Assembly (NCBI GenBank): GCA_934255455.1
Contig: CAKQNS010000002.1
Span: forward strand, 11,007 to 75,006
DNA: 64,000 nt
Reading direction: 5' to 3'
From: an uncultured Alphaproteobacteria bacterium
Lineage (GTDB): Bacteria; Pseudomonadota; Alphaproteobacteria; Rs-D84
Shown one piece after another: positions 26,167-54,422 of the stretch. Below the pieces are notes generated by a model. That model made no database searches and was not told the DNA's origin. It was given only the letters and a program-made list of their open reading frames with translations. The translations under genes and the position numbers were made by a program. Within the stretch, counting starts at the first letter, position 1, and the number at the start of each line of letters is the position of its first letter.

Positions 26167-26200
26167 CGCACTATGTGCACTGTTTCCTGCACATAGCGCG
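26167..26200. repeat. Full palindromic copy of the GCGCTATGTGCA motif family (cgcactatgtgcactgtttcctgcacatagcgcg), also acting as the dnaJ terminator
   Basis: 13-bp arms around an 8-nt loop. Half-site copies at 43277, 52105 and 54403. Confidence 0.6.
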
Positions 26201-26204
26201 ATTT

Positions 26205-27338
26205 TTAAAACCATCCTTTTTTTGCGCTTTTTGTTTCGGCAAATTCGGTCAAAATCTTTTTCTGTTTTTCGGTCAATTTTGTTGGAATTGAAATTGCAAC
26301 ATCAATATACAAATCGCCAAAACTGCCCGTGCGACGCGTCGGCATACCGTGCCCACGAACGCGCAACTTTTCACCAACCTGGGTACCGGACGGAACCTTG
26401 ACCGACAATTTTTTATCATCAATGGTGTCTACCTCAATTTCGCCACCCAACGCCAATGTCGTAAATGGAATTTCCGTACGCGACACCAAATCATCGCCAA
26501 CGCGTTTGAAACGCGCATCGGGTGCAATATGAATATCCAAATAGAAATCGCCCGGCGTGCCACCATTCGGTGCCGCCTCGCCCTGGCCCGCCAGACGCAG
26601 ACGCGCGCCATCTTCGATGCCGGCCGGAATTTTCACATCCAGCGTCCGCGATTTATGCACCGTGCCCGTGCCATCACAAGCCGTGCACTTTTTATCAATT
26701 TTATGTCCCAGGCCACCACAATCGGGACACGGCGTTTCCATTGCGAAAAATCCCTGGCGTGTGTGGACATAACCCGACCCACCACATGTTTTGCATACGG
26801 GCGCTGGTTTTCCATCGGCGGTGCCATTGCCACCACATTTTTCACATGTAACATTACTGGAAAATTTAACAGTATGTGTTGTGCCAAAATATGCATCACG
26901 CAAGGAAATTGTCACATCATCTAACAAATCGCGACCACGATTTTGTTGTGCGCCACGCGCCGCACCGCCACCAAAATCACCAAATCCGAAACCACGCATT
27001 GCCTCGCGCAAGATGTCGTCCATACCGGCGCCGCCCCCCATATCAAAATGGAATGCGCCATTACCAAACGGATTGCCGCCACCAAACCCCGCACCCGCTG
27101 ATGCACCGTTGCCGCCGGCAAACGCCGCATCGCCAAAACGGTCATACGCCGCACGTTTTTGTGGATCTTTCAGAATATCAAACGCGTTGTTGACCTCTTT
27201 GAATTTTTCTTCGGCAGATTTATCGCCCGGATTTTTATCCGGATGATATTGCATCACCAATTTATGGTATGCCTTTTTAATATCGGTGTCCGACGCATCA
27301 CGCGCGACCCCCAAAACTTCGTACGGATTTTTGTTCAT
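26205..27338 (-). CDS. dnaJ: Chaperone DnaJ
   Basis: J-domain with HPD (MQYHPDKNPGD), G/F-rich linker, four CxxCxGxG zinc-finger repeats (CEKCGGNG, CKTCGGSG, CPDCGGLG, CTACDGTG), C-terminal domains. No dnaK adjacent. Confidence 0.9.
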   Translation of the reverse strand: MNKNPYEVLGVARDASDTDIKKAYHKLVMQYHPDKNPGDKSAEEKFKEVNNAFDILKDPQKRAAYDRFGDAAFAGGNGASAGAGFGGGNPFGNGAFHFDMGGGAGMDDILREAMRGFGFGDFGGGAARGAQQNRGRDLLDDVTISLRDAYFGTTHTVKFSSNVTCEKCGGNGTADGKPAPVCKTCGGSGYVHTRQGFFAMETPCPDCGGLGHKIDKKCTACDGTGTVHKSRTLDVKIPAGIEDGARLRLAGQGEAAPNGGTPGDFYLDIHIAPDARFKRVGDDLVSRTEIPFTTLALGGEIEVDTIDDKKLSVKVPSGTQVGEKLRVRGHGMPTRRTGSFGDLYIDVAISIPTKLTEKQKKILTEFAETKSAKKGWF

Positions 27339-27454
27339 AATTTCAGGCCTGTTATTTCTTGATGTTGAATATATAGACCGATTAGATAAAAAATCAAGCC
27401 CCGAAAACTGTTTCACTTGCGAAAAATGAAATTTTGCGCTAATAATATGATGCT

Positions 27455-29434
27455 ATGACAGAAAATAATACACACACATACGACGCATCAGATATTCAGG
27501 TACTGGAAGGTTTAGAGCCCGTTCGTCTGCGCCCCGGCATGTATATTGGCGGCACCGACGAAAAGGCATGGCATCACCTGCCGATTGAAATTATGGACAA
27601 CTCGATTGACGAGGCGGTGGCCGGTTTTGCCAAGAAAATCACCGTAAACCTGATTGATGCCAAAACAATTGAAATTACCGACGATGGTCGCGGTATTCCG
27701 GTTGATGAACACCCAAAATACCCGGGCAAATCCGCGTTAGAGGTTATTTTAACCACACTGCATTCGGGCGGTAAATTTAACAACAATGTTTATAAAACCA
27801 GTGGTGGTCTGCACGGCGTGGGCAGTGCGGTCGTAAACGCGTTGTCGCAAGAGATGATTGTGACAATTTCCCGCGATGGATATGAATGGCACCAAACTTT
27901 TTCACGCGGGAAACCTACAACCGCAATGACCCGCGGTGATGCAACACGGGCGCACGGAACAAAAATCCGCTTTACCATTGATGACGAAATATTCGGCGCA
28001 AATGCGGTGTTCAAACCGGTCAAGATTTACCGTATGGCGCGTGCGAAATCTTTCCTGTCGCGCGGGGTCAAAATTGATTGGCATTGTAATCCAGAATTAT
28101 TGACCGAGGATATGAACATCCCCGCCGATACGACATTCTATTACCCGGGTGGTGTGGCCGATTTCTTGGACGAAAAAACCCGTGACAAACCACGCATTTT
28201 GCCAAAAATTTTCAGTGGCAGTGTTGATTTCCCGGACGATTCCGGTCGCGTGGAATGGGCGTTGACGGTGTTGACCGATGAAAACGGAGCGGCGTCTGAC
28301 GATGGATTTTTTGCATCATATTGCAATACAATTGCAACAATTGATGGCGGCACACACGAAACCGGATTCAAGGCCGCAATTACCAAGGGGATAAAGGCAT
28401 ACGGCGAAAAAGTAAACAACAAATCCGCCACCACAATCATTGGTGATGATGTATTTGATTCGGTCGCCGCAATTGTATCTGTGTTCTACAAAACACCGCA
28501 ATTTTTGGGCCAGACCAAGGAAAAATTATCTAACCCTGAAATTGCACGATACACTGAAAATGCCCTGCGCGACCCATGGGAAATATTCTTGGCATCCGAC
28601 CCCAAAACGGCAAACGCGTTGTTGGATTTTGTGGTAAACCTGGCAAATGCCCGTATCAAAACCAAACAGGTCAAGGATATTGCCCGCAAAACCCCGACCA
28701 AGCGCGCCCGTATGCCGGCGAAATTGGCCGATTGTTCAAAACACGGAATCGAAGGCACCGAATTATTTATTGTCGAGGGCGAATCTGCGGGCGGCACTGC
28801 AAAACAGGCGCGCGACCGTGCGACCCAGGCAATTATGCCCCTGCGTGGCAAGGTATTAAATGTTATCTCTAATTCCGACGAACGATTCGGTGCGAACAAG
28901 GAATTAAACGAACTGATTGACATTATCGGTGCCGGCACGGCCAAGGATTGGGATGAATCCAAACTGCGCTATGAAAAAATTATCGTTATGACCGATGCCG
29001 ATGTCGATGGCAGCCATATTGCATCACTGTTGATGGCGTTTTTCTATCAGCACATGCCACAATTGATTTATGGTGGCCACCTGTACCTGTCGTGCCCACC
29101 ACTGTATAAATTCACATGCGGCACAGAATCATTTTATGTTGACAGTGACGAAGAATTGGACGCATTGCAAAACGGCAAATATAAAAATAAAAAGGTGGAA
29201 ATTTCCCGATTCAAGGGTTTGGGCGAAATGATGCCCAACCAGTTAAAGGAAACAACCATGTCGCCAAAAACGCGTCGGTTGATTCGCGTCGACCTGCCCC
29301 CGCGGACGGACGATGGCGCCGAAGACACGGAAAAAACCCGCACAATTGTTTCCGAACTGATGGGGAAAAAGCCCGAATTTCGTTTCCGCTTTATCACTGA
29401 ACACGCACAATTTGTCAAAGATTTGTTTGTCTGA
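27455..29434 (+). CDS. parE: Type IIA topoisomerase ATPase subunit, most likely topoisomerase IV ParE (659 aa); GyrB not excluded
   Basis: GHKL ATPase motifs (…EIMDNSIDEA…DDGRGIP…GLHGVGSAVVNALS…), Toprim (…ELFIVEGESAGG…DADVDGSHI…). The length fits ParE rather than GyrB (~800 aa). Confidence 0.8.
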   Translation: MTENNTHTYDASDIQVLEGLEPVRLRPGMYIGGTDEKAWHHLPIEIMDNSIDEAVAGFAKKITVNLIDAKTIEITDDGRGIPVDEHPKYPGKSALEVILTTLHSGGKFNNNVYKTSGGLHGVGSAVVNALSQEMIVTISRDGYEWHQTFSRGKPTTAMTRGDATRAHGTKIRFTIDDEIFGANAVFKPVKIYRMARAKSFLSRGVKIDWHCNPELLTEDMNIPADTTFYYPGGVADFLDEKTRDKPRILPKIFSGSVDFPDDSGRVEWALTVLTDENGAASDDGFFASYCNTIATIDGGTHETGFKAAITKGIKAYGEKVNNKSATTIIGDDVFDSVAAIVSVFYKTPQFLGQTKEKLSNPEIARYTENALRDPWEIFLASDPKTANALLDFVVNLANARIKTKQVKDIARKTPTKRARMPAKLADCSKHGIEGTELFIVEGESAGGTAKQARDRATQAIMPLRGKVLNVISNSDERFGANKELNELIDIIGAGTAKDWDESKLRYEKIIVMTDADVDGSHIASLLMAFFYQHMPQLIYGGHLYLSCPPLYKFTCGTESFYVDSDEELDALQNGKYKNKKVEISRFKGLGEMMPNQLKETTMSPKTRRLIRVDLPPRTDDGAEDTEKTRTIVSELMGKKPEFRFRFITEHAQFVKDLFV

Positions 29435-29718
29435 TGCGCCGCTGCATACCACTGAAATGGGTGCGGCGCGCATTAGGGGAAACCTGGGGCTGGCGGCGGA
29501 TGCCGATGTTGTGCGATTTTGCCGCGATGCGATTTATGGCGCCGAAATTATCCACCACGGAAAAAATTACTATGCCACACACCGCGATTTGGTGATTACA
29601 ATAAACGCAACATCATTCACGATAATAACCGCACACAAAATCAAGCAGCCACACCAGTGATTGACAATTTGATTTTTTGTATTATATTACACAAGCAATA
29701 AACAAGGAAAATATTAAA

Positions 29719-30234
29719 ATGACAAATTTAAGTAAAGTGGCACAGATACACAAAAGCCATAAAAAGAAGAATACTTATATAGTACACCTGGACGGCGAAT
29801 TTAATATGCCAGCATTCTGGGAAGAATTCAGCAAATCGCCATTGACCATTTTGGCCAAAAACGGCGAAACGGTTCAAGAAGTCGGCCGCTGTATGCGTTG
29901 CACCAAATTCCCAAACCCTGGCGCAATTCAAATGCATCGCGAATATCGCTATTTGGCCAAGGTAGATAAAAAATTGGCGTCAACCGTTGTTGAATATTTG
30001 GACAAGGACACCGGCGCACCGGTAGCATTATTGTACCCAACAGACCTGTATGTGTATGAAGAATATCGTGACAACGATTTCTTGGCACATTTGAATCATG
30101 CGTCACGTCAAGATTTTGCCCGCCAAATGGATTTGCGCACCAAAATGCTGGACAAGGCAATCACCATGGGCCAAGGATTACAAATAACGAGAAAAAAATG
30201 GCAAGCACAAAACACAAAAACACATACATTGTAA
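29719..30234 (+). CDS. Hypothetical cytoplasmic protein, paralog A of a tandem pair
   Basis: ATG 29719 with RBS AAGGAAAA. Shares K(K)NTYIV…DG…FPNPGA…EY…KLAST(V/I)VEYLDKD…PV…LYPT…HLNHA(S/T)R(Q/R)D…RQ with the next gene. No known domain recognised. Confidence 0.55.
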   Translation: MTNLSKVAQIHKSHKKKNTYIVHLDGEFNMPAFWEEFSKSPLTILAKNGETVQEVGRCMRCTKFPNPGAIQMHREYRYLAKVDKKLASTVVEYLDKDTGAPVALLYPTDLYVYEEYRDNDFLAHLNHASRQDFARQMDLRTKMLDKAITMGQGLQITRKKWQAQNTKTHTL

Positions 30235-30632
30235 AAATTGATGGCACAATGGCCGACTTGCAGGCCTTTGCCATGTGCGACCACGCTCCACTGCCAGTCG
30301 TCACATTTAATGGGGCGCCGGTTAAACAAAATGCCGGCGGGTGGATGAACTCGGTTCGTTTTCCAAACCCAGGGGCATCGTATATGTCATCGGAATATAA
30401 AAATATCGTTCCCCACTTTGGCGAAAAATTGGCATCAACAATTGTTGAATACCTGGACAAAGATAACAAAACGCCAGTTGTATATTTATACCCAACAATT
30501 ATTTTGGTTTGTGATGGATATAGTGAAACATATCAAACGCACCTTAATCATGCAACGCGTCGCGATTTGGTTCGTCAAATCAAAAAACGCATGGAAGCAT
30601 TAAATAGAATGGAACAACAAAAACAACTATAA
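30198..30632 (+). CDS. Hypothetical cytoplasmic protein, paralog B of a tandem pair
   Basis: 144 aa. Clear homolog of 29719-30234 (see motifs). Start overlaps the 3' end of paralog A in another frame. Confidence 0.55.
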   Translation: MASTKHKNTYIVKIDGTMADLQAFAMCDHAPLPVVTFNGAPVKQNAGGWMNSVRFPNPGASYMSSEYKNIVPHFGEKLASTIVEYLDKDNKTPVVYLYPTIILVCDGYSETYQTHLNHATRRDLVRQIKKRMEALNRMEQQKQL

Positions 30633-30640
30633 CAAAAACA

Positions 30641-30668
30641 CCGGCAATGCCGGTGCTTTTGTTTTCCC
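30641..30668. terminator. Bidirectional terminator (caccggcaatgccggtg flanked by A/T runs)
   Basis: Between convergent genes 30198-30632 (+) and 30679-32154 (-). Confidence 0.65.
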
Positions 30669-30678
30669 ACATCTTTGT

Positions 30679-33873: not shown

Positions 33874-34905
33874 TCATATACGAATATATCCACTGTCAAC
33901 TTTTCGTACCAAACCCTGTAATTCCAGCACAACTAAATCGCGCTTAATTTCCGAAATATTTTTTTTGACAATTTCTGCCAATACAGATTCGGACACCGGA
34001 ATCGTCCCCAGTTTATCCAACAAGGAATTTTCACCCGTATCTTTTTTTGTTTTTTTCTGCAACGATTGGGAATTATTTTCCAGTTCTGGAAAATCGGGTA
34101 CCCCAACGCACAACTCTGCCGCCCCCGATTTTATCAGCGAATTTGGCCCCGCGCCGCGGGAATCCGCCGGATGCGACGGAATTGCATATATTTTACGGCC
34201 AAATTCCTGTGCGAATCGGGCGGTGTGCATACTGCCAGATTTCTTGTCGGCCTCGCCCAATATCAATTTTTGGCCGATTCCTGCGACCCAGCGATTGCGT
34301 TGCACAAAATTTGATGCAATTGGCGACATGCCAACTGGCATTTCACTGATCACCACCCCGCGCGAAACAATTTCCCAATACAGCGATTCGTTTTCAATCG
34401 GCCAAATGTTATCGCACCCACCCGCCAGAACGGCAATTGTTTGGGCATTGCCATCCGCGCGCAACGCACCACGATGCGCCGCCGCATCGGTACCAATTGC
34501 CATACCAGACACAACCGCAATGCCATGCGCGGCAAAATTCGTTGCCAAATTCGCCATAAATTCCATACCCGCCGCGGTTGCATGACGCGTGCCAACCATT
34601 GCGACGGCCGGGCACCGCAATGTTTCCAAATTTCCGCGTGCCGATAACACCGGTGGATGATTTTTCAGCACCCGCAACGCCGCCGGATAATACGCATCGG
34701 TGTCACATATATAATGTATGTCCAATTCTGCCGCACGGTCCATTTCACGCCGCACCGACGCAACATGCGCATCATCCGCCCCCAGGGACGCCGCCGCCGC
34801 ACGAACATCACCACCGAATCGGTCCAGCAATTTACCATAGTTCACCGGCCCAATATTCGGCATACGCAAAATCAATAATCTTTCAAACAAATCAGACATA
34901 TTCAT
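33874..34905 (-). CDS. dprA: DNA processing protein A (DprA/Smf)
   Basis: Rossmann-like DprA core (…AVAMVGTRHATAAGMEFMANLATNFAAHGIAVVSGMAIGTDAAAHRGAL…ILGEADKKSGSMHTA…) and C-terminal winged-helix-like tail. Confidence 0.85.
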   Translation of the reverse strand: MNMSDLFERLLILRMPNIGPVNYGKLLDRFGGDVRAAAASLGADDAHVASVRREMDRAAELDIHYICDTDAYYPAALRVLKNHPPVLSARGNLETLRCPAVAMVGTRHATAAGMEFMANLATNFAAHGIAVVSGMAIGTDAAAHRGALRADGNAQTIAVLAGGCDNIWPIENESLYWEIVSRGVVISEMPVGMSPIASNFVQRNRWVAGIGQKLILGEADKKSGSMHTARFAQEFGRKIYAIPSHPADSRGAGPNSLIKSGAAELCVGVPDFPELENNSQSLQKKTKKDTGENSLLDKLGTIPVSESVLAEIVKKNISEIKRDLVVLELQGLVRKVDSGYIRI

Positions 34906-34983
34906 ACTATAAGAAATATTACCCATATAATAAAAGTAAAAAAAGCGCCCCAGTCGGGGCGCCAATATAAATGCGACACTATA

Positions 34984-37026: not shown

Positions 37027-38655
37027 TTAATTCAATGGTGCGCCCCAATGCTGTTGGATACTGCGTTCTGCATCCATCGGACTGACCAATACCTGGGGAG
37101 TCAAGATAACCACCAGTGTATCACGCGTGGCCGATGTTTCGCGCGACCCCGACAGTGCCATAAAGTCCGGATCACCCAAGCCATAACGCGTATCGTTATT
37201 GGTCTGTTTTTCAAATCCAGATACAACCAACATCTGGCCAGATTCCATAATAACTTCTTGCATGAAACTGCGCTCTTCAACCTCGGGCAATTGCAATGTG
37301 ACCTCGCCAATGGTTTGGGTTGACATTTTCAGCAATTCGCGAACCGACATACGGAACAGCAACAGAATCTTGCCATTTTCCAAAACATTCGGCAACAATT
37401 GCATTGAAAATCCGGTTTCCAAATCGTCCTGGTCAACGGTGCTGGATTCAACCGTTGTGAAATTACGCGATTCAAAACGTTTGATATAGCCGGTCGTTTT
37501 GGTGTTGTTTACAGGCGCAACGCGGTTGCTGCGCGTTGTCACACCAACATTTGTCACCAACGATACCTTGCCCTGTTTGGCCAAAGCCTCTATCAATGCA
37601 TTACTGCCCGCGCCACGCGCCAACGAACCGTTTTGAATTTGGTTCTGGGTATATGCACCGGCGACCGTAGAACCATTTTCTAAATGTGTTGCCCCCGTCA
37701 GTGCCGATACGGTGTTTGACAAAACAGCAATGTTCATGGAACTGGCCTCGGTCGTGGCAAGGTTATTTTTTGGATTCGCCACAATGTTCAATCCAGACGC
37801 ACTGTTGATGGCCGCCGCCAAATTCAATCCAAACGCCGAATCGTTAGACACAGATACCTGCAAAACCTTGACATCAATTGTCACCAATTGCGACAGCCGC
37901 TTGTTTTGTTTGTTGATATAATCGCCAACACGTGTCAATACCGACGGTGGCGCGGTCACGGTAATGGTTCCCAAACTGCGCGACACGGTGAACTCGGCGT
38001 TTTCAGATTTTCCGATAATACCGGAAATGGCCTTTTCAATTTCATCCCATTCTTTTAATGTAGATTCCAATGCGACCTGGTTTCCGTCATCGGTTTGAAC
38101 CGCGGTCTGGTATGAAACATCGGTTCCCAGTGCATATAATGTAAATGTTTTGGTTTCCGTTTCATAAAATACAATTGATGTTTTGTCATAATACCACAGC
38201 AAATCTAAATCGGTTGCAACCTGGGATAACAGGCCCGACAATTTGCCGGTATACGCAACATTGATGGTCTTTTTCAATTTTTCGGAATTTACCTGGCTGT
38301 CAATTTTAACCGGCAATCCGGTAATAGAATTAATGTCATTTGCCAAAACCTGTAATGTGACGGGGTCATTCAACAGAATTGTCACACCGGTATCGGTTTC
38401 GAAACGCGATGGCAAATTATTGCGATGTTCCAGCACGGTCGATTTGTTGCCCAACCATACGCCCTCGGACATGGAAACAGTGTCACCACTGGCAACCTTG
38501 GCACGAGGATTTTTAGACATTTCAAACGCATCGTACGCGTTGATAAAATCCTGGTCAACCTTGGCGGCAACCTTGGCCGATTCCTTGGTGGTGCACCCCG
38601 CCAGCGCAACCGCCAACGCACCACACGCAAATAATACTTTCATTGTTTTTATCAT
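37027..38655 (-). CDS. Lipoprotein secretin of the type IVb pilus family (PilN/TcpC/BfpB-like)
   Basis: ATG 38655 with RBS GGAGAG. Lipobox LAGC. C-terminal secretin domain (…GQMLVVSGFEKQ…RYGLGDPDFMALSGSRETSATRDTLVVILTPQVL…). ~540 aa, the size of R64 PilN and BfpB. 37 bp after the TcpQ-like gene. Confidence 0.7.
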   Translation of the reverse strand: MIKTMKVLFACGALAVALAGCTTKESAKVAAKVDQDFINAYDAFEMSKNPRAKVASGDTVSMSEGVWLGNKSTVLEHRNNLPSRFETDTGVTILLNDPVTLQVLANDINSITGLPVKIDSQVNSEKLKKTINVAYTGKLSGLLSQVATDLDLLWYYDKTSIVFYETETKTFTLYALGTDVSYQTAVQTDDGNQVALESTLKEWDEIEKAISGIIGKSENAEFTVSRSLGTITVTAPPSVLTRVGDYINKQNKRLSQLVTIDVKVLQVSVSNDSAFGLNLAAAINSASGLNIVANPKNNLATTEASSMNIAVLSNTVSALTGATHLENGSTVAGAYTQNQIQNGSLARGAGSNALIEALAKQGKVSLVTNVGVTTRSNRVAPVNNTKTTGYIKRFESRNFTTVESSTVDQDDLETGFSMQLLPNVLENGKILLLFRMSVRELLKMSTQTIGEVTLQLPEVEERSFMQEVIMESGQMLVVSGFEKQTNNDTRYGLGDPDFMALSGSRETSATRDTLVVILTPQVLVSPMDAERSIQQHWGAPLN

Positions 38656-38694
38656 ATTACTCTCCAAGATTCCCAGTTTCACACGCACCATTTA

Positions 38695-39585
38695 TTATTC
38701 TTCGGATGTTGTAATTACCAACACACGGTTTCCTTTATAAAATTTCGCATACGGAACTGGTGTCGCGCGCCCAAAATTACGAACCAATGCCGATGCTACA
38801 TCAACAAAGCGACCCTTGAACACGGCGCTGGCCTCTATCGGATATTCACGCGATGTCGCCCATACTAAATCCCAGCCCTCTTTGTCGCACCAGTTTTGCA
38901 GAACCTCGCGCAATGTTTGACCATTTGCAACAACCCACGAACGAACTTGGTCGGTCAATTTCTGGGCTGGTTCCGCATCGGCAGATGTGTCAACCGCGAT
39001 TTCTTTTTCTTCGACAATTTCACCATTTTCGTCGGTAATTGTTTTTGTCATTCCCATCTTGGCCGCGAACGCCGCATATCCATCAGATGCATTGTTGCAA
39101 TTTTTGCGACCACTGCGTGACACGGTCAGAACACTGCCCCCGTCATCTTCCAACATTTCGCGGTGCAGCAATGGCATTTCGGAACCATTATTGCATTCGT
39201 CATCAAATCCGACCGGGATCTGGTTGCCATGCAACATATTCGCCCCGCCCGACCAATCGCCATATCCGTTAGTCGCCAGATTGAAATTATTTTCCACAAC
39301 CAAATCGTTGCCAATTTTGGAAACAATTCTGATATTGTCAGATGTCGCCGATTTTTCGCACGCCGCATCACCACAGGCAACCGTAACATCGGCATCAGAC
39401 CCGGCAATCGGCCACACCGGAACCGGCATCTGCGTTTCCTGGCTGTCAACATATTGATTTTCATCAACCACATTTTCCTGGGTATAGAAAACCTCGCTCG
39501 TGACGACCTGGGGCAAAGATTCCGCCGCAAAGCAATAGCCCGCCGCGGTTGCAAACATTGCGACAATCAAAAATTTACGGAACAT
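38695..39585 (-). CDS. TcpQ/PilL-like pilus biogenesis protein (secretin partner)
   Basis: Signal peptide MFRKFLIVAMFATAAGYCFA. C-terminal …GQTLREVLQNWCDKEGWDLVWATSREYPIEASAVFKGRFVDVASALVRNF matches the TcpQ-family C-terminal domain pattern. RBS AAGGAAG before ATG 39585. Confidence 0.55.
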   Translation of the reverse strand: MFRKFLIVAMFATAAGYCFAAESLPQVVTSEVFYTQENVVDENQYVDSQETQMPVPVWPIAGSDADVTVACGDAACEKSATSDNIRIVSKIGNDLVVENNFNLATNGYGDWSGGANMLHGNQIPVGFDDECNNGSEMPLLHREMLEDDGGSVLTVSRSGRKNCNNASDGYAAFAAKMGMTKTITDENGEIVEEKEIAVDTSADAEPAQKLTDQVRSWVVANGQTLREVLQNWCDKEGWDLVWATSREYPIEASAVFKGRFVDVASALVRNFGRATPVPYAKFYKGNRVLVITTSEE

Positions 39586-42322: not shown

Positions 42323-42354
42323 CAAAAGAATAAAAAATGAACAAAGGAACAAAA

Positions 42355-43272
42355 ATGTCACGCGAACGCACAACCGGGTTATTGTCATGGGTATTGTGGC
42401 AACCGTTGAAATTTGCATTTATATCATTTGCATTGATGTCTGTGGTATCGGCCACATATTCCATTGTTGCAAACGCGATAACCGCCGGTGCAACAACCGT
42501 GGTATGGCCAATGTGGGCATTGATTGGTGGTGCAATCGCGCTGTCGGCATGGTTGATGTTGCGGAAATTGCCCCGTGCAAATATTGACCAACGCAGTTTT
42601 ATCGCATTGAATAACGCCCAGGCAATTATATTGGCCATTGCCGTATTTATGTCGATATTTATTGCAAAATATGCCCAGGGCGCAATGATGGGGATGATGT
42701 GGCGTGGCACCACCGGCAGTGTGCAATTCATTGCAATTGCAATCGGATTAGCGTTGTATTATATGTACTTGTTCGGATTGTTCATATCGAATGTATACGC
42801 TAAATTCTGGCGTGCACGCGCGATGGGCGTATCCACATGGCGCATTATTTGCACCATGCCAATGGGGTTCGGCCTATTGTGGATTCCAGGGTATATTTTA
42901 CCAGAGCCGCCGACACGACGGCCAGCATTGCCAATTCGCACCGCATGGTATGACCATTTTACAAACTGGATTGCATCACGCGGCACAATAACGGTCATTG
43001 CATTTGCGGTGTTAACACTGTTTACCGGTTTTATGTTTGGCCCACAATCATTAATGTTGACCGGCGGCATAACATTGCTGTTTGCCGTGTGGTTGGGATT
43101 TATGGGCCCCGCCAAGTTCCGCAACAGTATGCGCGGCGCGTATTCCACATTTGCAATTATCATAAACATTTTGTTGATAATCGGTGTAATTATGTTTGCC
43201 ACAATGCGCACCGAACCAAACGTTCAAATAAACATATCAGACATACAGACAACAACAAATATAACAAAATAA
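42355..43272 (+). CDS. Hypothetical polytopic inner-membrane protein (sits where sufD is expected)
   Basis: 6-7 predicted TM helices, no soluble beta-helix domain. ATG 42355 with RBS AAAGGAA; the ORF track start is 42337. Confidence 0.5.
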   Translation: MSRERTTGLLSWVLWQPLKFAFISFALMSVVSATYSIVANAITAGATTVVWPMWALIGGAIALSAWLMLRKLPRANIDQRSFIALNNAQAIILAIAVFMSIFIAKYAQGAMMGMMWRGTTGSVQFIAIAIGLALYYMYLFGLFISNVYAKFWRARAMGVSTWRIICTMPMGFGLLWIPGYILPEPPTRRPALPIRTAWYDHFTNWIASRGTITVIAFAVLTLFTGFMFGPQSLMLTGGITLLFAVWLGFMGPAKFRNSMRGAYSTFAIIINILLIIGVIMFATMRTEPNVQINISDIQTTTNITK

Positions 43273-43317
43273 AAAACGCGCTATGTGCACGATTTACTGG
43301 GACACAAAGGATTTAAT

Positions 43318-44361
43318 ATGAATGGTTTAATACTGTTTGTTGGTGGAATGTTTTTATTGTGGATGGGTCGCACAATTTTAATTCCACTGTTGGTGGCAAC
43401 ATTTTTGTGGTATTTGATAAATGCTATATCAACATATTGTCGTATGGTTTTGCCATTTCACACCGACGATGCCCGACACGAATACCCAATTGGTGCACGC
43501 GTGTTTGATTGGGCGGCGCATTTAATTTCATTGGCGGTACTGGCGGCATTGCTGTACACATTTGCAACCCAAGTTCGGCCTATGTTTTCAGAATTATTGG
43601 CCGCCCTGCCCGCGATACAACATAAACTGATTGATTTTGGCGTGATGGCATCTGATAAATTGGGCATTGCGTTTGATACATCAATGTTGCCAAACATTAC
43701 AAAAATCGCCGGTGGCATTGGTGCATCATTGGCCGGCATCGCAACATCGGTCGGTATGATATGTGTATATCTGTTGTTTATGTTTATTGAACAAACGACA
43801 TTTGATAAAAAGTTTTCTGCACTGTTTCCAAATAAAACACAATCCAAAAAAATGCGCTATATTATCGGCAGCATAGACACCAATATGAAAAAATATTTGT
43901 TTATGAAAACACTGATTTCGGCGGCAACTGGGCTGCTGTCATATTTATGGTTGCATGCCATCGGATTGGAATTTGCCGGCGTGTGGGCGTTTATAGTATT
44001 TATCGCAAATTATATCCCAACAATTGGTGCAATTGTCGCATGCGGGCTGCCAATACTGTATGCATTGGCCGTATCGTCAACATTACATCTGCCAATACTG
44101 GTTGCGGCGGGCTTGATTGGTTTGCAAATATTACTGGGCAATATTATCGAACCAAAATTGACCGGAAAAACATTAAACCTGTCAACATTGGCAATTTTAA
44201 TAAACCTGGTATTCTGGGGAATGATTTGGGGTATTGCCGGAATGTTTTTCAGTGTTCCATTATTGGTGGCAACATTTATCATTACCGCACAATTTGATTC
44301 CACACGTTGGGTCGCGGTACTGTTGTCGGCCGACGGAAAAATCCCCGATAAAAATGATTGA
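43318..44361 (+). CDS. AI-2E family transporter (PerM/YhhT, UPF0118)
   Basis: ~350 aa, 7-8 TM, family-typical …KTLISAATGLLSYLWLHAIGLEFAGVWAFIVFIANYIPTIG… block. ATG 43318 with RBS AAAGGA. Confidence 0.65.
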   Translation: MNGLILFVGGMFLLWMGRTILIPLLVATFLWYLINAISTYCRMVLPFHTDDARHEYPIGARVFDWAAHLISLAVLAALLYTFATQVRPMFSELLAALPAIQHKLIDFGVMASDKLGIAFDTSMLPNITKIAGGIGASLAGIATSVGMICVYLLFMFIEQTTFDKKFSALFPNKTQSKKMRYIIGSIDTNMKKYLFMKTLISAATGLLSYLWLHAIGLEFAGVWAFIVFIANYIPTIGAIVACGLPILYALAVSSTLHLPILVAAGLIGLQILLGNIIEPKLTGKTLNLSTLAILINLVFWGMIWGIAGMFFSVPLLVATFIITAQFDSTRWVAVLLSADGKIPDKND

Positions 44362-44400
44362 TAAAAAACGCGCTGGATACATTAAATCCGGCGTTTTTTA

Positions 44401-45186: not shown

Positions 45187-45188
45187 AA

Positions 45189-46655: not shown

Positions 46656-46690
46656 AAAAACGCGCATAATGCGCGCAGACAAATAAATAG

Positions 46691-46820: not shown

Positions 46821-48344
46821 ATGTTTACGATAAAGGGCAAAACAACAGATTGGGAACTGGTTATCGGGCTGGAAACACACATCGAAGTGTTGTCAAATTC
46901 CAAACTTTTCAGTGGTGCGTCGGCAAATTATAACCCGACGATTGCCCCAAATACCCAGGTTTCTATGGTTGATGTGGCAATGCCCGGTATGTTGCCGGTG
47001 TTGAACGAATACTGTGTTGAACAGGCTATTAAAATGGGATTGGGCCTGAATGCCGAAATTTCACATCACAGCAAATTTGCCCGTAAACAATATTTTTACC
47101 CTGACCTGCCCCAGGGATACCAGATTTCACAACCAGCCGAAGAGCCACCGGTTGTTGGCCGCGGATGGGTTGAAATTATGGGCGATGATGGCAACCCGAA
47201 AAAGATTTTGATTGAACGCGCACATTTGGAACAAGACGCCGGTAAATTAAAACACGATGTTCACCCAACAAAATCTTTTGCCGATTATAACCGTACGGGC
47301 GTTGCATTATTGGAAATCGTGACATTTTTGGACACAAAAAATCCGGAAAACAATTCATACATTTCGTCCCCAGACGAGGCCGAGCGCTATCTGCGTGAAA
47401 TTCGTGAAATCGCACGCGCCCTGGGCGTATCCAAGGCTAATATGGAAGAAGGTTCTATGCGCGCGGATGTGAATGTTTCTGTTCGTCCAGTTGGTGATAC
47501 AAAATTCCGCACCCGCACCGAAACCAAGAATATGGTATCGTTCAAATTCATTAAATCCGCCATTGAATACGAGGCGCATCGTCAAATTGAAATATATGAA
47601 AACGGTGGCGCCGTATCCCAGGATACAATGCGTTATAACCAGGGCGACGGCACAACATCGGTTATGCGCAGCAAAGAAGACGCATTAGATTATCGCTATT
47701 TCCCAGACCCCGATTTATTGCCATTGGACATTACCGACGAACAAATTGAACGCGTTCGTAAAACTATGCCAGAATTGCCGGCGGCAACGCGTGCACGTTA
47801 TATAAACGAATATGGTTTGGCCGAATATGATGCGGCGCGTTTAACCGAAACAACCGATATTTCAAAATGGTTTGATGCCGCCGTTGGTGGCAATGCGTCG
47901 CGCGCAAAACCAATTGCAAATTGGATGATTTCGGAACTGTTTGCGCACGTCGAAAATTGGGATGTAAAAAACGCTGTGGATACAGCCGAGCCTGGCACAC
48001 CGCGGATTATTCGCCCATTTGATTTGGCCGAATTGGTTGATATGATAAGTGCATCTGAAATCAACGGTAAACAGGCCAAAGATATATTTATAAAAATGCT
48101 GGATGGCGAAACCGGCAGCCCGCGCGAAATTGCCGATAAATTTGGTATGAAACAAATTACCGACACATCTGAAATCGAGGCCGCCATAGATGCCGTTATC
48201 GCCGCATCTGCCCCCCAGGTTGCACAATACAAGGCGGGCAAAACAGGCCTGTTGGGATTCTTTGTCGGCGGCGTAATGCGTGCCACACATGGCAAGGCTA
48301 ACCCAGCCGTTGTAAATGAAATATTATTGAAAAAATTATCATAA
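46821..48344 (+). CDS. gatB: Asp/Glu-tRNA amidotransferase subunit B
   Basis: …WELVIGLETHIEVLSNSKLFSG…VAMPGMLPVLN… conserved GatB N-terminus. C-terminal YqeY-like tail. RBS AAGGAAAAA. Confidence 0.9.
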   Translation: MFTIKGKTTDWELVIGLETHIEVLSNSKLFSGASANYNPTIAPNTQVSMVDVAMPGMLPVLNEYCVEQAIKMGLGLNAEISHHSKFARKQYFYPDLPQGYQISQPAEEPPVVGRGWVEIMGDDGNPKKILIERAHLEQDAGKLKHDVHPTKSFADYNRTGVALLEIVTFLDTKNPENNSYISSPDEAERYLREIREIARALGVSKANMEEGSMRADVNVSVRPVGDTKFRTRTETKNMVSFKFIKSAIEYEAHRQIEIYENGGAVSQDTMRYNQGDGTTSVMRSKEDALDYRYFPDPDLLPLDITDEQIERVRKTMPELPAATRARYINEYGLAEYDAARLTETTDISKWFDAAVGGNASRAKPIANWMISELFAHVENWDVKNAVDTAEPGTPRIIRPFDLAELVDMISASEINGKQAKDIFIKMLDGETGSPREIADKFGMKQITDTSEIEAAIDAVIAASAPQVAQYKAGKTGLLGFFVGGVMRATHGKANPAVVNEILLKKLS

Positions 48345-48359
48345 CCCAAAGGAGCACAC

Positions 48360-48527: not shown

Positions 48528-48532
48528 TACAA

Positions 48533-49837: not shown

Positions 49838-49842
49838 TAAAT

Positions 49843-51381
49843 TCAGAACGCAAAACGTGCGTTAAATGACACACGATGCATTGTACCAAAATCGGTTGTG
49901 ATAATGCCGAATTCGGCACCACCGCCGGCGGCATCAAACACAGACCAGGCATCAATATGCAATGCAGCACCAACATCGCCCGATGTTTCGGCGCGCATAC
50001 GCAAACCATAATCGTATGTCAAATCATCCGTGCCACCATGCGTATCAATATCAACGCCAATGCCAGTGTTGCTTTTATTATCCGACTGGTGTGCCACCAC
50101 GGCACGGTTTATGCCGGCGCCCGCAAAGGGCGTAAAAACAAAATCACCATCCGGATTCAAATGAACCCCAACATCAAATTGACCATAAAAACTTTTACCA
50201 TTTGGCGCCGAACGCGTCTTGGCACCGTCCATAACAAAATCTGATTCAAATGTGGCAAACGATGCTCCAACAATGCCACGCGCCATAAATTCGCCGTTGT
50301 CATATTTTGCACCAATATTTGCACCGACAAACGAACCAACAAAATCATTTATATCGTCCGACACATCAACCATACCGGCATAACCCGCAACACCAACATT
50401 AAAATTATTTGTAAAGGCTACACCATACGACATACGCGCCGCGTTTATATTTGCTTCCGCATTTTTAATTACAATTGGCGCAATGTAAAAATCATTTTCA
50501 ATGTTCAAATTAAACATTTCAAACGCATCAAACACCCGCACAGGATTCATCAGATTTATCGGATTCAGCCGCACAGATTTTGCCATAACTCCACGCAATG
50601 CCTCGATATCCGGTGCGCCATCCATTGCGACCAGCAATCTGTCATGTGGAGACGCCGCACGCACCGAATGCAGGAAATTTCCAGTATTTGAATCAAGTAT
50701 CTTGCGATAGTCTGTTTCACGAACCGTTGTCACATACAGCTTGTCATTTTCTATGTATGTTTTGATTGCCATCAACGGATTATCATTTGGCGCAATAATT
50801 GTTGCAACGCCGGTACCACCAATATTATCAATTAAAATTCCATTGGCCAAATCACGCAACGAATTCACATACAATTTTACATTTCCAATCAATTGTATCA
50901 ACGACGTGTCTGCAATTGTGGAATCAATAACCAACGATGAATTTTCCAGAATTATGCGACCGCTGGTGCCACCAATTGAAACTATATCGCCCAACGATAA
51001 CATTTCGGCATTGCGAACTAATATTGAATAATCAACATCCGTTTCTAAATTTTTTATGTCATCTGACGAAGTTATCAATTGTGTCAAACGCGAATTTGTC
51101 CCCAAATAAAAATCGGCATCCATTGTGCCACTGTTTTTAATGCTCAACGCCATACCATCGGCGACATGAATATTGCCCTGGAACAAACCACGGTTTTCGA
51201 ACGCCAATGCCGCATCAATGTACAAATCTGAAATATAAACACCGCCACGCATATCAATATATACATCATCCGCCACATGATAATCAGACGCATACATACC
51301 ACCATAAAAGCGCTCACCGTATGATGTCGTCACCGACACCAGCGTCACAATGAAACCAAAGGCAATTTTTCCTATACGCAT
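49843..51381 (-). CDS. Autotransporter-like outer-membrane protein (passenger plus C-terminal beta-barrel)
   Basis: Signal peptide. Repetitive beta-rich N-terminal region. C-terminal ~250 aa with alternating aromatic/Gly beta-strand pattern ending …RVSFNARFAF (terminal Phe). Confidence 0.55.
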   Translation of the reverse strand: MRIGKIAFGFIVTLVSVTTSYGERFYGGMYASDYHVADDVYIDMRGGVYISDLYIDAALAFENRGLFQGNIHVADGMALSIKNSGTMDADFYLGTNSRLTQLITSSDDIKNLETDVDYSILVRNAEMLSLGDIVSIGGTSGRIILENSSLVIDSTIADTSLIQLIGNVKLYVNSLRDLANGILIDNIGGTGVATIIAPNDNPLMAIKTYIENDKLYVTTVRETDYRKILDSNTGNFLHSVRAASPHDRLLVAMDGAPDIEALRGVMAKSVRLNPINLMNPVRVFDAFEMFNLNIENDFYIAPIVIKNAEANINAARMSYGVAFTNNFNVGVAGYAGMVDVSDDINDFVGSFVGANIGAKYDNGEFMARGIVGASFATFESDFVMDGAKTRSAPNGKSFYGQFDVGVHLNPDGDFVFTPFAGAGINRAVVAHQSDNKSNTGIGVDIDTHGGTDDLTYDYGLRMRAETSGDVGAALHIDAWSVFDAAGGGAEFGIITTDFGTMHRVSFNARFAF

Positions 51382-51477
51382 ACAGGAAATTTAGCATATA
51401 TGAAATGTTTCTTACAATAAAAAAGCAACCCGGGATTACCCCGGGCGCCAGATTCATGAACAAATAACAATTATTTT

Positions 51478-52017
51478 TTACATTTTAGAAATGTTGCCAA
51501 TACTCCCCCATGCGGCCTTGTACCCGCCATCACGTGTCAGATACAATTTTGCATTATTCAACTGTTTTGCGGTCAACCCACGAATCATAAATGTTTCTTG
51601 CAGTTGGCCGACTCTGTCTATACGCAATGTTGGCAAAGTTATAGGCATAGCCGCATTGTCACAGCACATACCATTGGCACATGGGCCGCATTGGTGTATA
51701 CGCATTGTGTATGTCACACCTGGGCGCAGATCTTGCAAATCTGTTTCCATTTTCAAGCCCGCATCGGTTTCCATAAATTTAATATACCCCATTGCAGACT
51801 CACCACCACGGCTGCTGCGTGTGAACATTTTCGCCGCGACACGATTAACCGCGGCATCTTCGTACGTCTGATAGAACATAACAGTTTCTGCCGGTTTATT
51901 GTGTGCTGGATGATGCTTTGCTTTTTTATTGCTACACATACCCGCACATCCTGACAATATTGCTGCCATGCCAATCACAGATGACATAACAAACACTTTT
52001 TTCATCATGTCTTTCAT
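51478..52017 (-). CDS. SodC-like (Cu/Zn superoxide dismutase fold) lipoprotein, probably lacking the full set of metal-binding His
   Basis: Lipobox LSGC. …GYIKFMETDAGLKMETDLQDLRPGVTYTMRIHQCGPC… and …ITLPTLRIDRVGQ…FMIRGL…LYLTRDGG… align with the SodC Greek-key blocks (GFHVHE.G.C / …LPAL.VD.G…IHAGGD). Only one His is retained. Confidence 0.4.
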   Translation of the reverse strand: MKDMMKKVFVMSSVIGMAAILSGCAGMCSNKKAKHHPAHNKPAETVMFYQTYEDAAVNRVAAKMFTRSSRGGESAMGYIKFMETDAGLKMETDLQDLRPGVTYTMRIHQCGPCANGMCCDNAAMPITLPTLRIDRVGQLQETFMIRGLTAKQLNNAKLYLTRDGGYKAAWGSIGNISKM

Positions 52018-52104
52018 AAAGGTCTCCTTTTCCTTTGGTTTACATGCCAAATTGTATATTATTTTTATATACTTTTCGCCAGGTATGATTACCTAGGAAT
52101 CCCA

Positions 52105-52125
52105 GGAAACAATGCACATAGCGCG
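52105..52125. repeat. GGAAACAATGCACATAGCGCG motif copy
   Basis: Matches the right arm of the 26167 palindrome and the copy at 54403. Confidence 0.5.
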
Positions 52126-52129
52126 TTTT

Positions 52130-52567
52130 TTATATCACGCGTTTAATGTGCAACAGTGCGCGCACGGCAAACGGCATTGCAACCAAATTTTGTAATAACA
52201 ACGCGGCGATATAATTACGTGGAAACGCAATTATATATTGCGATAAATTTATCACATGACCTGTTTCAATAATTGGCGCAACAAATGTCATTGTTCCCGC
52301 CATACACGCCGTCATAATAAACGGCGTATATTTCATTAAACCGAATCGCATCACCGTATGATGTACCAACGGTACAACAATAAAGAAATTCAGCACAACT
52401 GCAAATGCATATATTGGCATAAACCCACGGCAAAATGTCGTTGCATTCAACACCCCATGAATCCACAGATTCAACCCCATCATACCAATGACCATAATAA
52501 AACTGTTTGCCAAACAAAATATAACCGATTCGGTTTTTGTTTCCGGTCTGATATGTACACTACTCAT
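52130..52567 (-). CDS. Hypothetical small membrane protein (four TM)
   Basis: Hydrophobic segments and internal duplication. No recognised motif. Confidence 0.4.
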   Translation of the reverse strand: MSSVHIRPETKTESVIFCLANSFIMVIGMMGLNLWIHGVLNATTFCRGFMPIYAFAVVLNFFIVVPLVHHTVMRFGLMKYTPFIMTACMAGTMTFVAPIIETGHVINLSQYIIAFPRNYIAALLLQNLVAMPFAVRALLHIKRVI

Positions 52568-52692
52568 TTTTACACCCCATAAAAAACAGTGCCACCAACT
52601 GGACTTATGTGTTGATGGCACTGCGCGTTGTTATTATTTCTTGAAATTTGCGCTGGGCATTATAAATACAAATCAGCCACGGGTCAAGTTTT

Positions 52693-54321
52693 TCAACTGT
52701 ACAATTTCAAGAAAGATTTTAACAATGTTCGTGGTGAATATTGATGTTTATTTATTGATGTTAAATCTTTATCAATTCCCATCAGATAATACACCGCCCG
52801 CTGTGCGGCACGCACAGAATATTCCATGGTGAAAACCACATCATCGGGCTGTTCGGCAAATTGGCTGACGAATGCAAAATTTTCATACCCATGCGGATTT
52901 ACATCAGGCCGGTCGCCCGGGCGCCGAGGTTGAAATTGCGAATTGATATACGGCATAATGCATGTACGGCAAATGACACCACGCATCATATCAGCTTGCT
53001 GTTTCTTGGGCACATGCAAATGTCCCATCAATTCGGTCATTATTTCGCGACCGGTGCATTTGTACATCGGCTTTTTAACATAATCGCCATCAACAAACAT
53101 ATTCAAAGAATATCCCCAGAATATATTTGTATCGGCCGGCTGATTTTTAAAATGTGGTTGACGCGCAACAACAATGGACAGGCGCCACGCCGATTCGCGG
53201 AATGTCACCAATGCCCCACCACCGGGATGATTTGTGGTGAATTTTTGAATATATCCCAATACGCCCGGGTTGCTATTTATAGTTGTCGTGAACGACATCC
53301 ACATACTTTCATCGGGACGGCCGCAAAATACATCTGGGTCGCCAAATTCCGGTCGTCCGCGCGCAATACGGCGCCACAGTTCGAACGACGGGGCCGTTTT
53401 ATCACGATTGTATTTTGCAACTGTGTCGGTTGTGGCCTCAGCCGAATTATCGGTCATACAACCATTAGCAAACAAAACTATATCCGTTGGTTTTACCTTT
53501 ATTGTGCGTTCTTTGCCGCCCTTTTCGGTGTATAGAATTTTATCAGCAACATTATTTCCCGATTTATCGGTCACAAAGTTTATATCTGTCACGGTTGTGT
53601 TCAGCGAAATTTGCACCCCATGCTGGGCCAGCCATTCCGATATTGGACGAACGACAGAATCATATTGATTAAACGCCGTACGCGCGACACCAGCCAATGT
53701 GTGTATCCGCGGGAATTCATGCATAAAGCGCAACATATACCGACGCAATTCCGCCGCACTGGACCAGGGCTGAAACGCAAATGTCGTTTGCCACATCAAC
53801 CAGAAATTAGTTGTGAAAAAATGCTTGCCAAAAACCTCGTCAATGCGTTTGGCACCCAATGACTCCTCGCTCTCCATCAGAATCAGTTTTTCCATATCCA
53901 ATCTGTCAGATGTGGAAAATCCCATACGCGTCACATCAACTTTGGTCCCATCGGCATTTACCAACCGAGCACGTGAATGCGTTTTGAATTCGTCATTAAA
54001 ATTCAAAAATTCACGTTCCATATCTATCCCGTCAAATTCAATAGACGGAACCGCACTTATCATATCTTGGAAGCATTCGTATGTCGGAATGTTTAACATT
54101 CTGCCACCGCGTATCATATATCCACGACTGGCGTCACCGGCACCATCCAAACTGCCCCCGGCAACCGGCAATGTTTCCAGTATATGAATATTTTTGCCCA
54201 GAACATGTGCATCGCGAATTAAATAAACCGATGCCGCCAATGCCCCAATACCGCCGCCGATGATATATACATTTGTATCAGACGCGCGACGTTTTATTAA
54301 ACTTTTGCCTGTTTTTGCCAT
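52693..54321 (-). CDS. ohyA: Oleate hydratase (MCRA family, FAD-dependent fatty-acid hydratase)
   Basis: N-terminal FAD fold NVYIIGGGIGALAASVYLIRDA…ILETLPVAGGSLDG. 542 aa; MCRA-family blocks along its length. Confidence 0.8.
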   Translation of the reverse strand: MAKTGKSLIKRRASDTNVYIIGGGIGALAASVYLIRDAHVLGKNIHILETLPVAGGSLDGAGDASRGYMIRGGRMLNIPTYECFQDMISAVPSIEFDGIDMEREFLNFNDEFKTHSRARLVNADGTKVDVTRMGFSTSDRLDMEKLILMESEESLGAKRIDEVFGKHFFTTNFWLMWQTTFAFQPWSSAAELRRYMLRFMHEFPRIHTLAGVARTAFNQYDSVVRPISEWLAQHGVQISLNTTVTDINFVTDKSGNNVADKILYTEKGGKERTIKVKPTDIVLFANGCMTDNSAEATTDTVAKYNRDKTAPSFELWRRIARGRPEFGDPDVFCGRPDESMWMSFTTTINSNPGVLGYIQKFTTNHPGGGALVTFRESAWRLSIVVARQPHFKNQPADTNIFWGYSLNMFVDGDYVKKPMYKCTGREIMTELMGHLHVPKKQQADMMRGVICRTCIMPYINSQFQPRRPGDRPDVNPHGYENFAFVSQFAEQPDDVVFTMEYSVRAAQRAVYYLMGIDKDLTSINKHQYSPRTLLKSFLKLYS

Positions 54322-54402
54322 AATATATCCCCCTTGGTTTTATCAAAATAATAACAATTCAACCATCACATTATCCACAGGATACAAATCACAAAAAACG
54401 CC

Positions 54403-54422
54403 GGAAACAATGCACATAGCGC
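54403..54422. repeat. GGAAACAATGCACATAGCGC motif copy, followed by terminator hairpin cacccgcaataaatgcgggtg (54428-54450)
   Basis: Identical core to the copy at 52105. Intergenic between the ohyA start and the OMP gene end. Confidence 0.5.

Follow-up and report, generated by a model that had tools for sequence, protein, structure and literature searches.

Repetitive extragenic palindromic sequences (REPs) can terminate transcription or stabilise mRNA, and they are bound by the REP-associated tyrosine transposase (RAYT), gyrase and IHF. DNA uptake sequences occur about once per kilobase genome-wide. Rickettsia palindromic elements (RPEs) are palindromic repeats of a reduced alphaproteobacterium that are also found in frame within essential coding genes, and the parS, matS and ram sites comprise about ten copies of 13–16 bp, conserved across species, tolerated in genes and clustered regionally. 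Here we describe a 13-bp box that recurs in a 64-kb stretch of DNA (hereafter the window, 64,000 nt in full) from a gut alphaproteobacterium with a reduced genome, Candidatus Enterousia of the order Rs-D84. The box shares single traits with several known kinds of element and, apart from the intrinsic terminator, has the defining features of none. To judge from the comparisons presented below, the motif is a clade-specific cis-element: a 13-bp box that follows an A-tract, the complete form of which is a 34-bp palindrome with A/T tracts. We favour, tentatively and with somewhat less than even confidence, the reading that the box is the recognition site of a putative sequence-specific factor, probably a DNA-binding protein, and that the full site doubles as a terminator.

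The core TGCACATAGCGCG (reverse complement CGCGCTATGTGCA) has six matches in the window at no more than one mismatch. Four are exact, at 24801–24813, 26188–26200 and 52113–52125 on the plus strand and at 43277–43289 on the minus strand; two carry one mismatch, at 26167–26179 (minus) and 54411–54423 (plus). By our own arithmetic, the chance expectation for an exact 13-mer is ~0.002 in 128 kb of two-strand sequence, and CGCGCTATGTGCA is one of two 13-mers that tie as the most frequent in the window. The 21-mer GGAAACAATGCACATAGCGCG was matched three times at no more than three mismatches, against 0.00 matches in 100 shuffles. The box also recurs as a variant, and we refer to CGCGCTATGTGCA as form A and to CGCGCTGGATACA as form B. 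Seven recognisable members lie in the window. The four sites listed in the initial annotation of this DNA (26167–26200, 43277–43290, 52105–52125 and 54403–54422) are all present as it described them; it missed an exact copy in uvrC, the form-B copy at 44369–44381 and a degenerate copy in gatB. The gene labels ohyA, pgsA, dnaJ, uvrC and AI-2E are supported.

The complete form occupies 26160–26206 and comprises an A-tract, the arm CGCACTATGTGCA (26167–26179), the spacer CTGTTTCC (26180–26187), the arm TGCACATAGCGCG (26188–26200) and ATTTTT. The palindrome reported earlier between convergent pgsA (plus strand, ending at 26121) and dnaJ (minus strand, ending at 26205) is confirmed as a 13-8-13 inverted repeat of 34 bp (26167–26200). 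It lies 4 nt past the dnaJ stop codon and 45 nt past that of pgsA, beyond the terminator that belongs to pgsA; the site sits between two convergent gene ends, where there is no gene for it to control. Two strong hairpins are predicted for the 99-nt region around it (−42 kcal/mol, z = −7.25), one being pgsA’s own terminator and the other the motif’s 13-bp stem with its 8-nt loop. A U-run follows on both strands (T7 for dnaJ, ATTTTT for pgsA). The segment 26160–26206 thus has what defines an intrinsic terminator, namely a G+C-rich hairpin with a U-tract directly behind it where a transcription unit ends, and its predicted structure and position indicate that the palindrome is a bidirectional Rho-independent terminator.

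Proteins that neighbour the palindrome loci are 70–90% identical between the species compared, and ordinary terminators at such divergence are expected to drift by compensatory change. We examined 36 palindromes from other species and loci, representing more than 30 species. Their arms are 0–1 base off a single consensus, and a compensatory double change was found in one arm pair alone (locus L013). The spacer is exactly 8 nt in 36 of 36; its sequence varies between species, with an A/T-rich centre. A G·U-wobble test on the single arm changes gave no bias on either strand and was uninformative as to the strand on which selection acts.

Two single members flank the gene for the AI-2E transporter. 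Copy D (43277–43289, minus strand; AAAAAACGCGCTATGTGCA on the plus, or gene, strand) lies 4 nt past the stop codon of a gene for a 305-aa membrane protein (42337–43272) and 28 nt before the AI-2E ATG at 43318, which is preceded by a good Shine-Dalgarno sequence. The site is upstream of AI-2E, as first annotated, but not immediately so; across genomes, the distance from D to the AI-2E start codon is 25–34 nt. The second of our two sets of related loci (L numbers) was fetched through homologues of the 305-aa neighbour and is independent of the motif. In this set, all 15 in-clade loci (L099–L113) carry D, with 0–2 mismatches or as a form-B-like variant. D was not found in L114, nor in the seven most divergent loci (L115–L121), where the genes either overlap or have spacers shortened to as little as 18 nt. 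Four additional loci range from an exact or form-B copy of D to a decayed one or none. A mini-open reading frame, with its ATG in the box and its TAG in the second arm, 25, 28, 31 or 34 nt from the AI-2E ATG, was considered and rejected: the spacing shows no significant periodicity (p about 0.2; two of the lengths are out of frame), and the peptide and stop are not conserved in L007, L010 and L046.

At the other end of AI-2E, a form-B copy (feature 44363–44400, plus strand) has CGCGCTGGATACA at 44369–44381, 8 nt past the stop codon. It pairs with ATCCGGCG in a canonical hairpin (44370–44394) followed by T6, between AI-2E and the convergent gene ruvX, and this hairpin with its T6 again has the make-up of an intrinsic terminator. 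In other species the same spacer holds a full palindrome (L051), one form-A arm plus GGGC-T6 (the L031 group), the window’s arrangement of form B, ATCCGGCG and T6 (L023, L037, L097 and others), a different hairpin, ACGGTGC-TATGT-GCACCGT (L096 and L098), or nothing (L032 and L062).

Copy E (52105–52131, core 52113–52125, plus strand; the minus, or gene, strand reads TAAAAAACGCGCTATGTGCA-TTGTTTCC) lies 4 nt past the stop codon of a DUF2798 gene and 95 nt before the ATG of a gene (51478–52017, minus strand) that had been labelled “SodC-like”. The site is indeed upstream of that gene; the label itself is weak, with Pfam Sod_Cu at E = 0.029 and NCBIfam at E = 8e-5, both below cut-off, and on sequence similarity the product is better described as a 179-aa protein of no assigned function. 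Copy E is kept, with a change of the first base at most, in 10 of the 10 motif-independently ascertained loci that reach that far. It is retained in 20 distinct upstream contexts, which include a DUF2798 end, an ohyA end, a terminator and a divergent gene, and in every context examined it stays with the 5′ region of the “SodC-like” gene. A conserved TGACG (−35-like) lies 28–31 nt from E, with a TATAAA-like hexamer 17–18 nt beyond it, and a promoter is predicted there. Conserved RNA structure in the E leader was rejected, as changes in the spacer are uncompensated.

Copy F (54403–54423, core 54411–54423, plus strand) is a variant ending in A, and the minus strand reads TGCGCTATGTGCA. It directly follows the terminator (54425–54455) of an outer-membrane protein (OMP) gene and lies 89 nt before the ohyA ATG; a −35/−10-like pair starts 33 nt downstream. 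An identical 13-mer occurs in 8 species that were found via E, including L060, in which the flanks and the adjacent terminator are different. Copies D, E and F are without a hairpin partner and fold no better than shuffles. No fold was predicted for the single copies (z-scores of +0.25 to +1.65 for the D and AI-2E-3′ contexts), and no U-tract is present 3′ of D or E on the gene strand.

As separate observations, an exact DnaA-box consensus, TTATCCACA, is located at 54371–54379, 31 nt from F, in a conserved block upstream of ohyA. The gene content between the OMP and “SodC-like” genes (52130–54472) varies, in that ohyA and DUF2798 may both be present, or one or both may be missing. A copy of the box stands at the junctions of this variable interval when the window is compared with L007, L010, L014, L043, L060, L061 and L077.

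Do these copies belong to a classical regulon? The box would then be an operator or activator site for AI-2E, the “SodC-like” lipoprotein and ohyA, and the palindrome would be its strongest site. In the window, E and F indeed lie at similar distances (~30–33 nt) upstream of −35-like hexamers, where promoters are predicted for the “SodC-like” gene and ohyA. E travels with its downstream gene, and among the genes that flank the copies many relate to the envelope (pgsA, lnt, OMP, M23/LysM peptidase and membrane proteins). We consider such a regulon unlikely, because the palindrome and the copies at the 3′ ends of AI-2E, lnt, trmB and the M23 gene lie between convergent genes or at gene ends, without a promoter; D, by its distance from the start codon, has a geometry different from that of E and F; further copies lie inside uvrC, gatB, gatA and topA; and no regulator gene is linked. 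The initial annotation had suggested looking for co-occurrence with a regulator gene; none was recognised in the window or in related loci. A plain promoter-proximal regulon explains only two or three sites, E and F among them. The transcription-factor site proposed at the outset therefore survives for E and F, upstream of their predicted promoters, and not for the palindrome or the AI-2E 3′, uvrC and gatB copies.

It had also been proposed that confinement of the copies to 3′ gene ends would speak against a transcription-factor site. This is nearly what is seen: single copies, oriented as AAAAA-CGCGCTATGTGCA, mostly start 3–5 nt past the stop codon of a co-directional gene. The pattern is broken by L022, in which E lies between divergent genes, and by L007, L010, L014 and L043, in which E lies behind a terminator.

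Members within genes provide a different kind of evidence. The uvrC copy (24781–24813, plus strand) consists of a degenerate left arm, CGCGGTATGCGGC (24781–24793), a 7-nt spacer and an exact right arm, TGCACATAGCGCG (24801–24813), and encodes ..NRGMRRERAHSA... The codons G[C/T]A CAT AGC GC[G/A] are kept in 22 of 24 orthologues, with the degenerate left arm 7–8 nt upstream, and each arm is among the ~2% of windows with the highest synonymous-codon identity. The degenerate gatB copy (47966–47984, box 47972–47984, plus strand) reads AAAAAA CGCTGTGGATACA and specifies the residues K N A V D T. Its codons, AAA AAC GCT GTG GAT ACA, rank first of 401 six-codon windows for synonymous-codon identity (0.955, vs. 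a mean of 0.687), and in some species a recognisable second arm lies 8 nt downstream. In a subclade, gatA carries GCCGGATTTCA-TGCACATAGCGCC-GTTT. The segments in uvrC, gatA and gatB have the same length as in motif-less orthologues; they are not longer, and thus are not insertions. A look-alike, TGTACATAGCGCG, which encodes RVHSA in the orthologues of an RluD-like gene (22561–23541), served as a control: it varies freely at synonymous sites, its copy in the window has diverged, and we do not count it as a family member. The test for synonymous constraint can therefore discriminate.

Copies in the coding genes of a reduced-genome alphaproteobacterium are the trait that the box shares with RPEs, which are treated in PMC1779305. 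The two differ in that an RPE is an insertion of ~100–150 bp that lengthens the host protein, whereas the coding copies of the box span 13–34 nt and leave the length of the protein unchanged. Two further observations concern the gat genes. The gatB copy contains GTATCCACA (47975–47983), which is not in the other copies; form A matches the DnaA box at 6 of 9 positions only, and identity with a DnaA box was rejected. No cluster of DnaA boxes was found in the window. Between the gatA stop codon and tRNA-Phe, at 46660–46677, there is a hairpin, CGCGCAT-AAT-GCGCG, with A/T tracts; it has the box-family frame AAAAAAACGCGC...GCGCG and may be a collapsed relative.

In sum, sequence comparison shows the letters themselves to be conserved beyond what pairing demands, in the unfoldable single copies as well as at the synonymous codon positions of uvrC and gatB. 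The fixed arms and spacer, the conservation of the unfoldable single copies, the synonymous constraint and the recurrence of two discrete forms are left unexplained by termination, and from them we infer a trans-acting reader of the box. Recognition at the level of DNA is favoured because E and F lie behind terminators and upstream of predicted promoters, and because the copies occur in both orientations with respect to transcription once those in coding genes are counted. A DNA-binding protein would bind the palindrome as a dimer. The centres of the half-sites are 21 bp apart across an A/T-rich dyad, a spacing that would fit a dimer on one face of the helix; single boxes would be bound as half-sites. 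The DNA of the palindrome would thereby encode a binding site and a terminator hairpin together. At E and F, the bound factor would be ~70–80 bp upstream of the start of transcription and could modulate the promoters, and at D and the coding copies it would sit in transcribed DNA. Possible roles include the regulation of transcription, the marking of transcription-unit boundaries and the organisation of a chromosomal region.

The orientation of the copies bears on a further possibility, that the element is read during or after transcription, on the sense-strand sequence CGCGCUAUGUGCA. It would be either a non-template-strand signal for a specialised NusG paralogue, like the ops element, or a site in RNA targeted by an RNA-binding protein or a complementary RNA. 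Elements of the ops/RfaH type lie in the transcribed leader, past the promoter. The ops element of E. coli has the outline GCG-N-TA...GTG, which the box resembles, and the low copy number and high conservation of the box are ops-like as well. All five well-conserved single copies (D, AI-2E 3′, gatB, E and F) show CGCGCT... on the local sense strand, and the box can form a 4-bp mini-hairpin, GCGC-TAT-GTGC. The bias is not significant when uvrC and gatA are counted (5 vs. 2). Moreover, F in all genomes and E in several lie behind a terminator and upstream of a predicted promoter, and are probably untranscribed; at the positions where forms A and B differ, no single base could pair with both; and a NusG paralogue was not seen. 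We therefore regard a transcript-borne signal as very unlikely. In an Rfam search, the only hits in the window were two tRNAs.

The window matches a 275-kb contig of a Hadza gut metagenome. To survey the distribution of the box, we scanned one genome per species, for 185,579 species, with the 18-mer TGCACATAGCGCGWTTTT. This yielded 100 exact matches in 90 stretches. Gut or rumen metagenome-assembled genomes of Alphaproteobacteria (labelled Candidatus Enterousia, “uncultured Rickettsiales” or Alphaproteobacteria) account for 83 of them; the other 17 are scattered over unrelated phyla and are within chance expectation. A few shared loci hold 75 of the 83 in-clade matches: the 3′ end of dnaJ, the interior of uvrC, the spacer between the 305-aa gene and AI-2E, the 3′ end of AI-2E, the region upstream of the “SodC-like” gene and the 3′ end of an M23/LysM peptidase gene. 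The remaining eight are internal to topA, in four species, or follow trmB or lnt. Wherever an assembly is long enough for the distance to be read, the shared loci are within ~20–45 kb of one another, and ~90% of the in-clade exact copies are gathered in a single syntenic stretch of about 30 kb that surrounds dnaA. Genomes of the Rs-D84 lineage are mostly smaller than 1 Mb (~0.75–1.0 Mb; PMC12306168). Exact copies of the 18-mer number 1–5 per species-representative genome, and the copy number of the box is under about 10 per genome of roughly 0.9 Mb. This pattern of matches shows vertical inheritance of the box at ~8–10 fixed places across dozens of species of Candidatus Enterousia / Rs-D84. 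None of 2.9 million viral contigs contained a match, and the box was accordingly rejected as a phage attachment site. In the searchable literature, the 13-mer and its complement are absent; the only matches are 11-mer fragments within unrelated primers.

Low copy number, regional clustering and constraint on nucleotides inside genes are features that the box has in common with parS, matS and ram. The boxes might accordingly be sites of a putative clade-specific protein of chromosome-organising or partition type, marking a domain of ~30 kb around dnaA, with the strongest site co-opted as the dnaJ/pgsA terminator. There would be about ten full and half sites, placed in intergenic DNA and in variable loops of essential genes, in genomes of less than 1 Mb. 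We consider this specific version quite improbable. Unlike parS, matS or ram, most members of the box family are asymmetric half-sites, and no ParB-like gene was seen. The window’s best match to the 16-bp parS palindrome, TGTTNCACGTGAAACA, is found within dnaJ, with 2 mismatches, and has no relation to the motif. There is no switch of GC skew in the window. The palindrome was also rejected as a dif site, as there is no skew switch at 26 kb, the copies are multiple and the arms are of 13 rather than 11 bp.

The uptake sequences of Neisseria and Pasteurellaceae (DNA uptake sequences, DUS, and uptake signal sequences, USS) resemble the box in their family-wide core of 10–13 nt, their occurrence in both orientations and in coding as well as intergenic DNA, their inverted pairs that act as terminators and their A/T-rich flanks. 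They differ in density, for the exact copies of the box are few per ~0.9-Mb genome and confined to one region. The window does contain dprA (33874–34926), a secretin gene (37027–38691) and a TcpQ-type gene (38695–39585), all on the minus strand; genes of competence or pilus type in a genome below 1 Mb may be relevant to DNA uptake.

The close and main rival to a recognition box is a REP-like, terminator-derived repeat family without a dedicated reader, which we judge possible, if doubtful. In the clade’s ancestor, a palindromic element of ~46 bp with A/T tracts would have been dispersed among gene ends, serving as an intrinsic terminator and as a 3′ hairpin that stabilises mRNA. Single boxes would be half-deleted relics, some of them exapted, and conservation would reflect the constraint of a hairpin on both strands plus occasional ectopic conversion. 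Such a family fits the palindrome as a canonical bidirectional terminator, the position of the box just after a stop codon in most genomes, and the compensatory change in L013. It fits the clade’s spacers as well: in the sister clade, which lacks the motif, these are 30–45 nt shorter and AI-2E lies directly against the adjoining genes. The series at the AI-2E 3′ end can be read as passing from the full palindrome through a single arm with GGGC-T6 to new hairpins and loss. In L113, the same double change is present at both copies that flank AI-2E, which suggests conversion. Taken with the recurrence of form B from member to member, for instance at the L024 uvrC site and the L022 gatB site, both of which read exactly as form B, this shared change indicates that the members evolve as a family.

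REPs and BIMEs (bacterial interspersed mosaic elements; REPINs) of Enterobacteria and Pseudomonas are also like the box in their gene-end or intergenic position, their two orientations, their inverted pairs that form hairpins and a consensus shared among relatives; their single units look like decayed doublets, as do the single copies of the box. The differences are that REPs number in the hundreds, are strictly extragenic, have an imperfect palindrome as the unit itself and come with a RAYT gene. The tens to hundreds of extragenic copies per genome by which REPs and REPINs are recognised are not found for the box, the positions of which are orthologous and not variable. No RAYT (an IS200/IS605-type Y1 transposase) or other transposase adjoins any copy examined; whole genomes were not searched. 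Nor would a REP-like family account for arms that lack co-variation over more than 30 species, for the constant length of the spacer, for the conservation of unfoldable E and F in unbiased samples or for coding copies that are under synonymous constraint with no change of length relative to motif-less orthologues. Thus, this rival can explain why the box sits at gene ends, why the clade’s spacers are longer and why the AI-2E 3′ end turns over, and it does not explain the constraint on unfoldable and coding copies. The REP-like repeat that had initially been offered as the alternative is in this way upheld by the hairpin-terminator form and the gene-end position, and opposed by copy number, orthologous inheritance, coding constraint and the want of a transposase nearby.

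Other repeated terminator sequences in the window also accord with a REP-like origin. One of them, AAAAATGCGCCGAYGGCGCATTTTTT, occurs at 1740–1768 and 14219–14247, with weaker copies at 1700–1728 and 11875–11903. It was found once in ~670 kb of related loci and is not conserved there; a general conservation of terminators therefore does not explain the box.

The architecture of the palindrome raises one more alternative, a target for a site-specific (tyrosine) recombinase. Its 13-bp inverted arms and 8-bp spacer, exactly 34 bp in all, equal the layout of loxP and FRT, and half-sites flank blocks of genes that come and go; in genomes that lack both ohyA and DUF2798, a single box has the left flank of F on one side and the right flank of E on the other. 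Unlike loxP and FRT, the box has neither a recombinase nor a partner with the same spacer, and its A/T-tract flanks make it a terminator. Neither the window nor the related loci have a recombinase gene nearby; a genome usually has a single full site; and the spacer is not the same from species to species. In the arrangement that lacks ohyA, the breakpoints do not coincide with the box. The sister clade also has AI-2E, without the boxes that flank it here. For D and E, which are inverted relative to each other, there was no sign of inversion polymorphism, and viral contigs hold no matches. We consider a recombinase target highly improbable.

A recognition box for a sequence-specific factor thus remains the reading that we prefer, and several points weigh against it. 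By its predicted structure, the full site lacks nothing that an ordinary intrinsic terminator has. The single copies retain the 8-nt spacer and then 2–3 nt that resemble the start of the second arm, so that by sequence they resemble palindromes cut short. At the 3′ end of AI-2E, the box has repeatedly been lost or exchanged for an unrelated hairpin with a T-run, which argues that termination is the function needed there. The first of our locus sets was ascertained by exact match to the motif, and D appears moderately conserved, less so in unbiased samples. Sites of 13 bp with homopolymer flanks between convergent genes are unusual for transcription factors, and the regional clustering could come from local copying. 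Finally, neither the window nor the related loci yielded a candidate binding protein; Pfam, NCBIfam and PDB sequence searches of the unannotated neighbours gave none. The consensus sequences of EcfG/ECF, sigma-32, sigma-54, CIRCE, OxyR, NsrR and CRP-type sites were compared, and none fits in spacing.

The window holds other repeats. A 97-nt palindromic element is present in two 97%-identical copies (8344–8440 and 11341–11437) and a partial one (1464–1521). Its arms repeat the heptamer AAAGTTC in inverted orientation on either side of a GC-rich hairpin, GTGTGCGCCGGATGACGCAC, and the element looks like a small repeat of the miniature inverted-repeat transposable element type. The open reading frame at 2283–3362 (minus strand) contains coding tandem repeats of 30, 60 and 90 nt at 2422–2760, and a 300-nt, 96%-identical duplication (2881–3180 and 3819–4118) is shared between this frame and a neighbouring one.

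Enterousia and its Rs-D84 relatives are uncultured, with genomes of less than 1 Mb and very little regulatory machinery, and the box offers a rare handle on how their DNA is controlled or organised. If a protein reads it, box and protein would make a compact, experimentally tractable protein–DNA pair in which one sequence is both a terminator hairpin and a binding site. If none does, the box would be a clean example of a low-copy, vertically inherited, terminator-derived repeat, the conservation of which would need another cause. Either way, it is a sharp lineage marker for this clade in metagenomes.

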